Assembly: GCA_047602405.1 (NCBI GenBank)
Contig: JASGHJ010000002.1
Location: forward strand, 2,688,001 to 2,752,000
DNA: 64,000 bases
DNA from: Anaeromyxobacteraceae bacterium
Lineage (GTDB): Bacteria > Myxococcota > Myxococcia > Myxococcales > Anaeromyxobacteraceae
Direction of reading: 5' to 3'
The notes under the pieces were generated by a model. It had not been told where the DNA came from. It made no database searches and saw only the letters and a list, made by a program, of their open reading frames with translations. The position numbers and the translations under genes are program-made. Positions 12,839 through 16,953 of the stretch are shown piece after piece. Numbering within the stretch: the stretch's first letter is position 1; each line of letters begins with the position of its first letter.

Positions 12839-12948
12839 CCGCGGAAGGTGCCCGCCGGCAGGCGGGCAAGCAAGCCCCCGCGGGTACGGGGACCCTCACG
12901 GAGGTGCGTCGAGGTGCTTCACGCGCCGCCGGGGTGGGCGGGCCCGTT

Positions 12949-12994
12949 CATCCCGACCCTCCGACGCGCCCGGCGTGAACGGAGTCGAGGGACG
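12949..12994 (+). repeat. Degenerate REP-like element (TCCCGA...CGGAGTCGAGGGA family)
   Basis: Shares both ends with the copies at 28652 and 32335. Confidence 0.45.
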
Positions 12995-13008
12995 AGCCCC
13001 CGCAGCGC

Positions 13009-13482
13009 TCAGCTCGGGCGCGGGTCGGCCCACTCCCAGACGAGCGCACCGTCGCGCGCGGCGCGCTCGAGCAGGCGCGCGAGCTCCTCGAGCGGCGCGG
13101 CCGGGGGCACGTCGATGGCCACGAGCTTCGGCCGGAGCACCTCGTGCGTGCAGCCGAGCCGGACGACGGCCGCGAGGAGCCGCTCGGTCCGCTCGCTCCC
13201 GAGCTCCTCGCCCACGTCGAGCGCGAGCCGGAGCGTGCGGTGCCCGCCCCGCTCCACCACGGCGTCGATCCACGGCGGCCGCCCCGGCGCGTGCACCACG
13301 TCCTCGCGGGAGAGGCCGTACGCGAAGAACGGGCAGCTCTCGACGCGGTAGCGGCCGGACCCGAGCGGCTCGGCCCACAGCCAGTCGTCGTCGGGCCCCG
13401 GCTCGCCCGGCCCGCGCTCGAGCGCGATGCGGATCCGCACCAGCCCCTCGACGGCCTCGACCTCGTCCTTCGTCCCCGGCAC
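13009..13482 (-). CDS. DUF4265-like protein
   Basis: WLWAEPLGSGRYRVESCPFFAYGLSREDVV...GHRTLR...VAIDVPP. Start GTG 13482 is inferred; the longer ORF call runs into the mobile element. Confidence 0.7.
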   Translation of the reverse strand: MPGTKDEVEAVEGLVRIRIALERGPGEPGPDDDWLWAEPLGSGRYRVESCPFFAYGLSREDVVHAPGRPPWIDAVVERGGHRTLRLALDVGEELGSERTERLLAAVVRLGCTHEVLRPKLVAIDVPPAAPLEELARLLERAARDGALVWEWADPRPS

Positions 13483-13492
13483 GCAGGAGGTT

Positions 13493-15433
13493 CTAAGAGC
13501 TGTCCCACAATTGCTCAAGCAAGTCGTGGGGCAGACCGGTTCGCCACCGGGCCCGCTCGGACGTGGTCTCCCGTGAGGAAGGCTCATTCCGGGTTGGGCC
13601 CGCGGCCGTGCCGGCGGTTCGCCGAGCCACCGGCGATGAGGCCGGTGTGGACGTCCGCCACGCGGGGCAACTGGCCTCGCGGGCGAAGAGGTCGTTTGAC
13701 TCGGACCGGGTGTCTTGCCACCCGAGACACAGGTAGGGTGTGAGGAGGCGCTGGATTTCGGGGCGGGAGCCGTTTGCGGCGGCGTAGTCGACGCGCGCCG
13801 AGTCGGGTTCGCTGGAGAGGTCGAGCACGACGAAGCTCGCGAGCACCGCGGAGACGGCGTCGCGGTCGCCCTCGAGGCCGCAGCCTGGGCAGCGGTGGAC
13901 CCGGTCGGCGAGGGTCTTCGGCACGCGGGCGCCGCAGGGGCAATGCTGGGAGAGCGCGGTCGTGCGGGTGGGGATCCGGACGACGCCTCCCTTGGTCTGG
14001 GCGAGGCCTGCCACCGCCTTTGCCTCGCGGTCGATGGCCGAGACGAGCAGGCCCGGCGTGAATGCGGCCACGCCGCGGCCCCAGCGGCGCGCCCACGCGG
14101 AGATGTGGCCTTCCTCGACGAACAGTCGGTAGCCGTGGGTTCGGACGACGTCGGCAGCCACCCGCCTGGCGCGGTCGCGGCGGGCCTGCACCCCGGCAGC
14201 CGCGCTGGCGACCTCTTCGGCCCGAAGCCGCCGGTGGCGGCGCGAAAGTTGGTCGCGCCGGTAGGCCTGGAGCGGCACGCCGTCCGCCCTCGCAATCCTC
14301 GGCCCCTGCGGAATGACGTTCACGGGCGAGAGGCCAGAGGCGGCGCGTCGCCGGGCGCGCTTCTCTTGCCGCGTCGACAGCCGGTACTGTTCCTGGTTGG
14401 CAGCGCGGCGGGACCGGTCCAGCGCCCGCTGCCTGCGGCGCTCGCGGCGCCGCCGGCCACGGTCTCCATCCTTCGTGGCAAGGTCGCGCGCGATCCGCGT
14501 GAGGCGCAGGTCGCCTCCCGCCACCTGCGAGGCGATCGTCAGGTTCGACACGTTGACGTCCATCCCCGCGAGGCGGTCAGCCTCGGCGACGGCGACCTCC
14601 GCTCGACGCGCCCTCGTGGCGGGCGAGAGGTAAGGCTCCTTCAGCACCATCAGGTGGGCTTCGTAACGCCAACCTCCGGGCGCATGAGGTGCCCGGGTGC
14701 GAACGAGGTCGACCTTGTGCCAGAGGCTCGGGTCGGCGAGGTGGTAGTCGAGGATGGGCTGGTTGCACGGTGCCGTGGGCAGTCGCACCGGGAGGACCAG
14801 CGAGCCGTCGGCGAGCCCGCTGAAGACGAGCATCAAAGGACCTTGGTAGGCCCACCAGTCGACGCGGCCGCCCGGAGCCGAGGGGGCTCCGAGGCGATGG
14901 CCCGCGAGCGAGCCGTGCAGCCGGAAGGTCTCCCACTTCCGCGCCGTCGTGTGAGAGCGCGCGCGGCCGGGCAGCCTCCCGAAGTCGAACCACCGTCCGA
15001 CGTGGAGCAGTCCCTGCCGCTTTCCGGTCGCGTCGGGGAACAGGTGCCGCTCCGCCGCCGACCAGACCGAGTCGGCGAGGTGCATCGCGAGCGCCTTCGT
15101 GACGAAGCGCCGGAGGTGAGGCGCCGCCTCGAGAACGGCGTACGCGGTGTGCTCGAGCGCCTCCCGGCTCAGGCCGAGCCGGTCGCGCGTGCCCGCGGCG
15201 TCCCGGGCCCGTTCGTGCTTCGCCGCCCAGTAGGCCCGCGTACGGTTCCGGGCCGCCCGCTGCAGCGCCCGCCGCACCCGGTACGCGTCCGCGAACATCC
15301 GCTCGAGCCGCCGACGCTGCAGGGGATCGTGGACGTCGAGCGCGAGCCGCAGGACCGACACGCCGCCCTCGGGCCGGCGCGCCCAGGGCTCCTGCTTGTT
15401 CGGACCGCGGGTCCGCTTGGGTTCGACTTCCAC
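13493..15433 (-). CDS. tnpB: Large TnpB/Cas12-superfamily RuvC nuclease (646 aa), probably RNA-guided
   Basis: RuvC-I LAGMDVN, Arg-rich helix, RuvC-II LFVEEG, zinc finger CPCG...CPGCG, RuvC-III DRDAVSA; D-E-D triad intact; uninterrupted ORF. Confidence 0.85.
   Translation of the reverse strand: MEVEPKRTRGPNKQEPWARRPEGGVSVLRLALDVHDPLQRRRLERMFADAYRVRRALQRAARNRTRAYWAAKHERARDAAGTRDRLGLSREALEHTAYAVLEAAPHLRRFVTKALAMHLADSVWSAAERHLFPDATGKRQGLLHVGRWFDFGRLPGRARSHTTARKWETFRLHGSLAGHRLGAPSAPGGRVDWWAYQGPLMLVFSGLADGSLVLPVRLPTAPCNQPILDYHLADPSLWHKVDLVRTRAPHAPGGWRYEAHLMVLKEPYLSPATRARRAEVAVAEADRLAGMDVNVSNLTIASQVAGGDLRLTRIARDLATKDGDRGRRRRERRRQRALDRSRRAANQEQYRLSTRQEKRARRRAASGLSPVNVIPQGPRIARADGVPLQAYRRDQLSRRHRRLRAEEVASAAAGVQARRDRARRVAADVVRTHGYRLFVEEGHISAWARRWGRGVAAFTPGLLVSAIDREAKAVAGLAQTKGGVVRIPTRTTALSQHCPCGARVPKTLADRVHRCPGCGLEGDRDAVSAVLASFVVLDLSSEPDSARVDYAAANGSRPEIQRLLTPYLCLGWQDTRSESNDLFAREASCPAWRTSTPASSPVARRTAGTAAGPTRNEPSSRETTSERARWRTGLPHDLLEQLWDSS
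13496..13735 (-). ncRNA. Putative omegaRNA-like scaffold overlapping the tnpB 3' end
   Basis: The ~80 codons of low-information protein tail lie over stacked hairpins at 13708-13730, 13628-13647, 13536-13550 and 13504-13530; same position as TnpB omegaRNAs. Inference. Confidence 0.45.
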
Positions 15434-16165
15434 CTTTTCACCTTAAGCCAAAGCCCTGACAGGCGTTCAGGGCCTCCGAGCAGGCGCCCATGGACGAAGT
15501 GAGCAACGTTCGCGCCTCCAGGCTGTCCCTCATCCCGACCCACCGACTGCTCACCCTCGCGTCCCTCTCATGGCGCGACCTTGCTCGCCTCCGGCGCGTG
15601 CTCCCCGCGTCCAGGTGCCGGGGGCGTCCCTGCTCGAGCTCGCCGCTGCACCGTCTCCTCGTCGCCTGCATCGCGCTGCGCACCAACCTCACCCTGCGCG
15701 AGCTCGCCGCCGTCGTCGGCCTCTCGAAGTCGACCGTCCATCGCATCGTCGCAGCCTTCACGCCGAGGCTCGCTGGCCTCGCTCGCCCTCCCGTCCGGAG
15801 AGATCGCCGCGAGACCTGGATCGTCGATGGGACCCTCATCCTCACTCGTGATCACGGCCGCCCACCGTCGGCGAGCACACGGCGGTGGTCGAGGCCCCTG
15901 AAAGCGGGGATGCGAAGGCCGGTGAAGCCTCGGTATCCTGCAACGCCCGGGTGCTCGTGCGCTGGCGAGACCGTCGGAGCAACGGGACCGTTCGGGATCG
16001 CGCCTGGCGCCGCCATCGTCGCCGCCGGGCTCGCGTCGAACACGTCCTCGCTCGCCTCAAAGGCGCGTCCTGCGCGACCACCGCCGACGCGGCCGCCACC
16101 TCGCGGCCACCGTGGCAGCCGTCGCCGTCCTTCACAATCTCAAGCGAAACTTGTGGGACAGCTTC
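13496..16165. mobile_element. IS5-family-like element with terminal inverted repeats, carrying a tnpB-like gene and a decayed DDE transposase
   Basis: Left end AGAGCTGTCCCACAA (13496-13510) versus right end TTGTGGGACAGCTTC (16151-16165), 13/15 identical; TA on each side (13494-5, 16166-7); empty site reconstructs to CTAG; more A/T-rich codon usage than the flanks. Confidence 0.85.
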
Positions 16166-16168
16166 TAG
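15490..16168 (+). pseudogene. IS5-family (HTH + DDE, IS112/ISL2-like) transposase remnant
   Basis: RGRP...LRTNLTLRELAAVVGLSKSTVHR (HTH); IVDGTLILTRDH (first D); RARVEHVLARLK in a second frame (E); VLRDHRRRG...LHNLKRNLWDSF* in a third frame; middle ADxGY motif missing. Confidence 0.8.
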
Positions 16169-16953
16169 CGCGGACCGAGCCGCGCCGCGATCCCCTCGGC
16201 GAGGTCCCCGCCCGTGTGCCGCGGCGGAACGACACCCGGCTCGAGGCCCTCCTCCCGGAGCGCCGCCGCGGTGGTCGGGCCGATGGCCGCCAGCACGAGG
16301 CCCGCGGCGCCGAGCAGCGCGCGCGCGCGCGGGCCCAGCCCCGCGACCACCGCCCGGACGGCGGACGGCGACGCGAAGGCCACCGCCGCGATCTCGCCGG
16401 CGTCGAGCCAGCGGCCGAGCGGCGCGAACGCCTCGGGCGCGGCCGGGACGGTGCGGTACGCCTCGACGGCGACCACCTCGGCGCCCGCCGCGGCGAGCCC
16501 CGCCAGGATCTCCGGGCGCCCCTCCGCCGGGCGCGGCACGAGCACCCGGGCGCCGCGCACCTCGGGGCCGAGCGCGGCGGCGAGCGCGTCGCCGCGGGCC
16601 TCCGCGGGCACGAGGTCCGGGGGCCGGCCCAGCGCGGCCTCCAGGCGCTGCGCGGTGGCCGGGCCGACCGCGCCCAGGCGCAGGCGTCCGAGCGCGGCGC
16701 GCGGCACGCCCAGGGCGGCCATGCGCTCGAGCGTGCGGTCGACGGCGGTCGCGCTCGCGAAGACCGCCCAGGCGTGGGACGGCAGCGCGCGCAGCGCCGC
16801 GTCGAGCGGCCCCGGGTCGGCGGGCGGCGCGAACGCGATGGCGGCGACGTCGCGGACCTCCGCGCCGAGCGCGCGAAGCCGGGCGGACAGCTCGTCCTCC
16901 CCGCCGCGGCCGCGGGTCACCACCACGGCGCGCCCGGCGAGGGGGCCGGCCAA
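16165..16953 (-). CDS. hemD: Uroporphyrinogen-III synthase
   Basis: PLAGRAVVVTR, FASATAV, AVGPATA, VEAYRT, FASPSAV, AIGPTTA; follows hemC. Confidence 0.9.
   Translation of the reverse strand: MAGPLAGRAVVVTRGRGGEDELSARLRALGAEVRDVAAIAFAPPADPGPLDAALRALPSHAWAVFASATAVDRTLERMAALGVPRAALGRLRLGAVGPATAQRLEAALGRPPDLVPAEARGDALAAALGPEVRGARVLVPRPAEGRPEILAGLAAAGAEVVAVEAYRTVPAAPEAFAPLGRWLDAGEIAAVAFASPSAVRAVVAGLGPRARALLGAAGLVLAAIGPTTAAALREEGLEPGVVPPRHTGGDLAEGIAARLGPR

Follow-up and report, generated by a model that had tools for sequence, protein, structure and literature searches.

A TnpB-carrying, IS5-type element family with a CTAG target and a predicted omegaRNA in Myxococcota and Actinomycetota

In an Anaeromyxobacteraceae genome, a 646-aa TnpB-type protein is encoded next to a divergent IS5-type DDE transposase gene inside a 2,670-bp element with terminal inverted repeats (TIRs), and homologous loci in two phyla and on plasmids show that the two genes form one coherent, co-diverging family. 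The window analysed is a stretch of 64,000 nt, to which all coordinates refer unless a locus or contig is named. Judging by how the closest homologues are labelled, the host is probably Anaeromyxobacter-like (Myxococcota). On the evidence presented below, this is a mobile IS5-family cut-and-paste element inserting at CTAG, whose TnpB probably serves as an RNA-guided homing nuclease; it would cut the empty allele and thereby let repair restore the element by copying.

The element, its insertion site and its copies

The element lies at 13496-16165. Its 15-bp TIRs, at 13496-13510 on the + strand (AGAGCTGTCCCACAA; the tnpB/omegaRNA end, equivalent to the IRL of the plain insertion sequence) and at 16151-16165 on the - strand (GAAGCTGTCCCACAA; the transposase end), are identical at 13 of 15 positions and are flanked by a TA duplication within the target CTAG, with one copy at 13494-13495 on the RNA side and the other at 16166-16167 on the transposase side. 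The flanks read CTA-AGAGCTGTCCCACAA at 13493-13510 and TTGTGGGACAGCTTC-TAG at 16151-16168. The RNA-side TIR ends in T on the - strand, and the terminal base on the transposase side departs from the consensus, hence the window junction there reads CTAG. These repeats and the duplication were reported in the first-pass annotation, and the same layout recurs in five further copies. The IS5 family is characterized by short TIRs and a 2-3-bp duplication at YTAR-type targets, which agrees with the 15-bp TIRs, the TA within CTAG and the empty allele described below. IS200/IS605, IS1341 and IS607 elements, with a Y1 or serine transposase and lacking TIRs and target-site duplications (TSDs), are set apart by the TIRs, the TA duplication and the DDE partner found here.

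The gene tnpB (13493-15433, - strand) and the transposase gene (15490-16168, + strand) run outwards from a 56-bp spacer (15434-15489) that presumably holds both promoters. Both frames close on the LWDS-x-stop motif noticed earlier, with LWDSS-stop ending the 646-aa ORF, LWDSF-stop ending the transposase-side frame and the duplicated TA used by both stops. The insertion target was the stop codon of hemD (uroporphyrinogen-III synthase; 16165-16953, - strand; HEM4 E=2e-51), which is intact, the transposase-side TA copy providing the TA of its stop codon. On the other side of the element lies a DUF4265 gene (13009-13482, - strand, with a putative start codon), which directly follows hemD in the empty allele. 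That allele had been predicted as GGAGGTT-CTAG-CGCGGACC and is present letter for letter in a relative (genome G010, locus L037), with a single CTAG and contiguous flanks of about 93% identity. An intergenic sequence of about 77 bp at 12925-13001 is REP-like and has many repeats in this genome and in G010.

A search for further ends, as the first-pass annotation had proposed, yielded five more full-ended copies in the genome. There are therefore six, each of the form C-TA-TIR...TIR-TA-G, plus one short end fragment. Together with the predicted empty allele in G010, the five additional copies exclude chance. The DDE transposase is intact in two copies, absent in three and scrambled in the window copy. 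Copy E2 (2,788 bp) encodes an intact transposase of 265 aa; in copy E3 the transposase is also intact, tnpB is frameshifted and the intergenic spacer harbours an ISAs1 element; and copies E4-E6, of about 2,200 bp, are devoid of transposase. E4 and E5 are 100% identical across tnpB, which indicates a recent move in trans. The ISAs1-family element nested in E3 (L025:1785-3484, or G000:C2 798284-799983) encodes a 445-aa transposase and has CAGACCTGAT ends and a duplication of about 11 bp; a second genomic copy (G000:C1 661275-662958) is 99.6% identical to it. The end fragment (L029, G000:C2 2661894-2662052) retains a single TIR, that of the RNA side, together with the last ~80 nt of the scaffold and part of the zinc-finger region. 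Apart from the six elements and a single end fragment of 79 nt, this genome yielded no standalone omegaRNA copies.

The E2 transposase matches the Pfam models DDE_Tnp_1 (41.6 bits, cut-off 23), DDE_Tnp_4 (36.6 bits, cut-off 24.8) and also HTH_Tnp_4 above their cut-offs. Its best NCBIfam model, IS5_4, stays below cut-off (47.5 against 140), as it does for a RefSeq-named IS1373 protein (95.4). The nearest named relative is an IS1373-family IS5 transposase, with 48% identity over residues 57-198; IS1373 may be a member of the ISL2 group of the IS5 family. The Pfam and IS1373 matches bear out the IS5 type assigned in the first-pass annotation, and what was termed a remnant there is a gene that short inversions and deletions have scrambled. 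Compared with E2, the window gene (HTH_Tnp_4 and DDE_Tnp_4) is colinear to about 15861 and keeps the first Asp; beyond this point there are two short inversions, one of which (15862-15939) holds the second catalytic Asp, a 41-bp piece (15936-15976) is displaced, about 107 bp are lost, and 15976-16163 is colinear in another frame. From its sequence, the window transposase would be either dead or misassembled. Such a tight cluster of inversions, displacement and deletion within 15862-15976 is an unusual damage pattern or an assembly artefact.

TnpB and its predicted omegaRNA

The 646-aa protein carries the RuvC triad D292 (14558-14560), E440 (14114-14116) and D525 (13859-13861), all on the - strand, and a zinc finger formed by C498, C500, C515 and C518; the first-pass annotation had noted a RuvC/zinc-finger protein with an intact D-E-D. 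Conservation among 93 homologues is nearly complete, both for the triad (D292 and E440 in 93/93, D525 in 92/93) and for all four cysteines (92-93 of 93). The RuvC-III motif reads DRDAV-S/A instead of DRDxN. In the structural and HMM placement, the fold proved to be of the TnpB/Cas12f type by Foldseek, with Cas12m2 among the top matches, and the ESM Atlas returned TnpB-like clusters only; the curated NCBIfam models were matched below cut-off and over the C-terminal part only (guided_TnpB, 25 bits against 100; IS607_TnpB, 30 against 350). Judged by these scores, this TnpB is a divergent lineage. A simple repeat-spacing detector applied to the flanking sequence found no CRISPR array adjoining any of 114 family loci.

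A block of ~230 nt, running from 13724 to the TIR, is strongly conserved and is predicted to be the omegaRNA scaffold (13496-13724, - strand), with a 5' hairpin at 13724-13707 followed by GTCC at 13706-13703. It covers tnpB codons ~571-646. Across the three codon positions, conservation is 0.75/0.80/0.59 for the coding core and a flat 0.73/0.72/0.74 for the RNA block, indicating that residues ~571-646 are constrained by the RNA. As these last ~75 residues overlap the block, the nuclease proper, or folded core, would be about 570 aa. The tail of the ISDra2 TnpB is described as dispensable, with a comparable RNA-constrained C-terminus (PMC10097598). In 66 of 89 cases, the ORF is still in frame through the block to the TSD stop. 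RNAalifold, applied to 21 sequences, predicted 60 pairs, 25 of them compensatory, with 96% of cells pairing, a level reached by none of 500 shuffles and compared with 35-43% in slid controls, all of these controls being biased in favour of the structure because it was taken from the same alignment. An omega-type match was detected in 103 of 114 loci, the misses being mostly at contig ends, and Rfam gave nothing at E<=1 for the block.

A predicted pairing joins the GTCC past the 5' hairpin to GGAC of the TIR (13505-13502, - strand); each of its pairs is kept in 74-78 of 80 sequences. In actinobacterial elements the TIR reads GGTC and the scaffold partner switches too (T-A 57, G-T 14, A-T 1), essentially as one event. 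Conservation falls to background directly past TAG (89 ends), and the flanks beyond CTAG are random, as expected of a guide. In the window, the putative guide would be AACCTCCTGCGTGCCG (13477-13492, - strand), the host flank after TAG, its start and length being predicted. The sequence thus has the features of an OMEGA system, namely a predicted structured RNA over the tnpB 3' end and element end, followed by a variable guide.

The terminal base of the RNA-side end is T in all 86 distinct ends, and far ends finish in C in 8 of 59, the apparent far end of locus L018 being excluded from the count as a reversed RNA end; kinship among the loci means that the Fisher p=6e-4 for this bias is overstated. 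Position -3 is also tighter at the RNA side (T in 79/86 against 33/60). Because the RNA-side end finishes in T, the filled site reads TTAG, which suggests a CTA(G) target-adjacent motif (TAM) with self-avoidance; constraint on the scaffold alone could also explain the bias. Within this genome, the sole RNA-side end finishing in C is that of fragment L029, most of whose scaffold is lost. At L018:3391-4849, the 3' part of tnpB and the RNA end are inverted upstream of the remainder of the gene, through rearrangement or misassembly.

Linkage across loci and the role of TnpB

We analysed 108 outside loci (23 from GTDB, 5 from plasmids and the best 80 of 494 from metagenomes) and the six copies of the source genome. 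Of the outside loci, 68 extend 900 bp or more upstream, and 57 of these (duplicates included), from Myxococcota, Actinomycetota and plasmids, have a divergent transposase, so the count proposed at the outset shows that the same IS5 transposase and the same repeats flank the homologues. In 9 of the 68, neither the transposase nor the far end was nearby, and some of these are remnants or contain other insertions. The position and orientation of tnpB are constant across the two phyla. TnpB and transposase identities, which reach as low as 44% and 38%, respectively, are correlated across 33 loci (Mantel p=0.001, Spearman rho 0.83), and in a quick midpoint-rooted tree 42 TnpB-linked transposases split from 13 plain ones at a branch with SH-aLRT 100. 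All 51 two-ended elements, 2.1-2.85 kb long, read CTA...TAG although the search demanded only TA, and CTAG occurs in this genome at 0.23 of expectation. One locus, L023, ends CTCT-TGA, with TGA in place of TAG. The family is present on five plasmid records, none of 72 pattern matches in viral contigs was confirmed, and a survey of the phylum with the transposase as query found it in 3 of 301 genomes, the source genome included, a patchy distribution for that query.

The linkage data and the tree, which lacks an outgroup root, point to one capture of tnpB, in the interval separating the left TIR from the transposase gene, and the ancestor was likely an IS1373-like insertion sequence of 0.85 kb that gained a tnpB-omegaRNA cassette at that position. 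Several loci show further arrangements. On a Mycobacterium plasmid, a family member is followed immediately downstream by an IS607 element that has a tnpB of its own (L031:4430-6689). Distant homologues at L139:2253-2441 and L140:2891-3079 have a partial omega-type match, with no TIR or IS5 transposase found at these loci, and are possibly an outgroup or an immobilised form. At L148:1480-1520, an element end directly adjoins another TIR-like sequence in head-to-head orientation, which would fit an insertion into the CTAG regenerated at another end.

The DDE enzyme presumably moves the element, and would have acted in trans on the window copy and on the three copies with a deletion. In the homing reading that we favour, the omegaRNA would be transcribed from the 3' end of tnpB through the TIR, with the ~16 host bases past TAG as guide; taken from the host flank, the guide would be reprogrammed at every jump. 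The TAM would be the insertion target itself, 5'-CTA(G), and the filled site would be spared because the RNA-side TIR ends in T and gives TTAG. The proposal that the empty site, CTAG plus flank, is the target follows the analogy with Fanzors in DDE elements, for which the 5' TSD is described as part of the TAM and the 3' TSD as part of the scaffold (PMC13565253). Cutting of empty homologous alleles, on the sister chromosome after excision or on incoming DNA or plasmids, followed by recombination, would keep or spread the element. Against homing stand the RuvC-III motif without its usual Asn, the curated TnpB scores far below cut-off, the consideration that a clean CTAG will not necessarily be restored on cut-and-paste excision, and the argument that TnpB may be of little benefit to DDE elements (PMC13565253).

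The same atypical DRDAV-S/A context, the large size of the protein and the presence of Cas12m2 among the top structural matches would also fit a complex that binds and cuts poorly or not at all, in the manner of Cas12m, so that the donor site is protected or silenced or a neighbouring gene repressed; the putative guide in the window does match the 5' region of the downstream host gene. We regard this as unlikely. Still more doubtful is the proposal that TnpB cuts mainly to harm element-free cells or replicons, by post-excision killing or exclusion of empty plasmid alleles, with no copy-back. The same anatomy and the five plasmid records support it, and it is among the options in the discussion of Altae-Tran 2023 (PMC10691335), but homing is the model given for IS605/IS607 TnpB in a 2026 review (PMC13565253), and the present data do not distinguish the two. 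That TnpB and its omegaRNA direct the DDE transposase to its target, as in CAST-like RNA-guided transposition, is very improbable. The stable, co-diverging partnership and a use of CTAG stricter than in the plain relatives (2 of 7 in non-CTAG targets) would agree with it; against it, the nuclease triad is intact, flanks past CTAG are random, close relatives transpose without tnpB, and the six guides have no perfect CTAG-preceded match in the rest of the genome, with one match at three mismatches. A chance nesting of an independent IS1341/IS605-type insertion in an IS5 element, for which one could invoke the usual association of TnpB with Y1 or serine transposases (PMC10691335), has next to no probability left and is rejected by the linkage, the co-divergence, the constant position and orientation across two phyla and the placement of TnpB-bearing transposases on one side of the SH-aLRT 100 branch of the quick tree, and by an RNA scaffold that enters the IS5 TIR and is predicted to pair with it.

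Relation to known TnpB and DDE systems

The first-pass annotation had suggested a separate family of DDE transposons that carry an RNA-guided nuclease. A coherent TnpB-carrying IS5-type family, with no nested IS605, is upheld by the linkage, the co-divergence and the empty allele, but the arrangement was largely catalogued in 2023. Altae-Tran 2023 reports six DDE-associated TnpB branches, DDE-1 to DDE-6, all with inverted terminal repeats, and solo tnpBs within the same ends, its text naming only DDE-6 (IS630) (PMC10691335). According to Kojima 2026, ISL2, IS630 and IS1031 transposases are the TnpB partners named from that work (PMC13565253). Two of these, ISL2 and IS1031, are groups of the IS5 family (PMC12730594, legend to Fig. 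3), so the arrangement is not new. In the present elements, too, there are inverted terminal repeats and a DDE transposase gene no more than 1 kb away, and the clade may be among the DDE-1 to DDE-6 branches. In the literature outside subscription papers, we found none describing or testing this clade by name.

It is conceivable, though doubtful, that these elements are an undescribed old IS1373-derived lineage, shared by Myxococcota and Actinomycetota, whose ~570-aa TnpB and DDE transposase co-evolved around a shared four-base code, the CTAG target being the TAM, the TIR doubling as an omegaRNA pseudoknot strand and the fixed terminal T blocking self-cutting. If true, they would be the bacterial equivalent of Fanzors carried by DDE transposons and offer a direct way to test homing in an element of the cut-and-paste type. 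The 2026 review asks whether TnpB benefits a DDE transposon that moves by cut and paste, and in what way (PMC13565253); the family is a ready test case, since copy E2 is intact, empty alleles are known, the RNA has been modelled and the TAM prediction is explicit, with CTAG cut and TTAG spared. Its value lies in explicit, testable predictions of TAM, guide and self-avoidance for an untested class; a larger, divergent TnpB with a short, C-containing predicted TAM would also be on offer for editing screens.

The DDE-1 to DDE-6 systems resemble the family in having TnpB within TIR-bounded DDE elements, a tnpB whose 3' end lies close to that of the element, solo tnpB copies that share these ends and moved in trans, and plasmid occurrence. 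The present clade is IS1373-like, CTAG-specific and ~650 aa, a comparison made from text in which DDE-6 alone is named, and the text sections compared give no TAM, RNA structure or test for the DDE branches (PMC10691335). IS1373-like Streptomyces elements (RefSeq 'IS5-like element IS1373 family transposase') have a near-identical TIR (TTACGGGACAACCTC-TAG), the TA duplication and the DDE motifs, but they are 838-873 bp long, lack tnpB, and have a terminal C in 4 of 7 and non-CTAG targets in 2 of 7, these being the seven with clear ends (six were left out) among 13 fetched of 169 plasmid records.

The IS605/IS607 TnpBs of ISDra2 and ISFba1 share the fold, the D-E-D triad, the zinc finger and an RNA over the tnpB 3' end and element end. 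By analogy with ISDra2, the guide is predicted to derive from the flank, and the long-range pairing predicted near the guide recalls the pseudoknot described for that system (PMC10097598). The two differ in the core, about 570 aa here and about 400 aa there, with 11-17% identity, in the TIR/TSD ends and DDE enzyme as opposed to HUH or serine enzymes, and in DRDAV-S/A as opposed to DRDxN. Finally, Fanzors also occur in TIR/TSD DDE transposons, whereas the present element is bacterial, and the scaffold-end pairing that Fanzor1 is described as having lost (PMC13565253) appears to be kept here.
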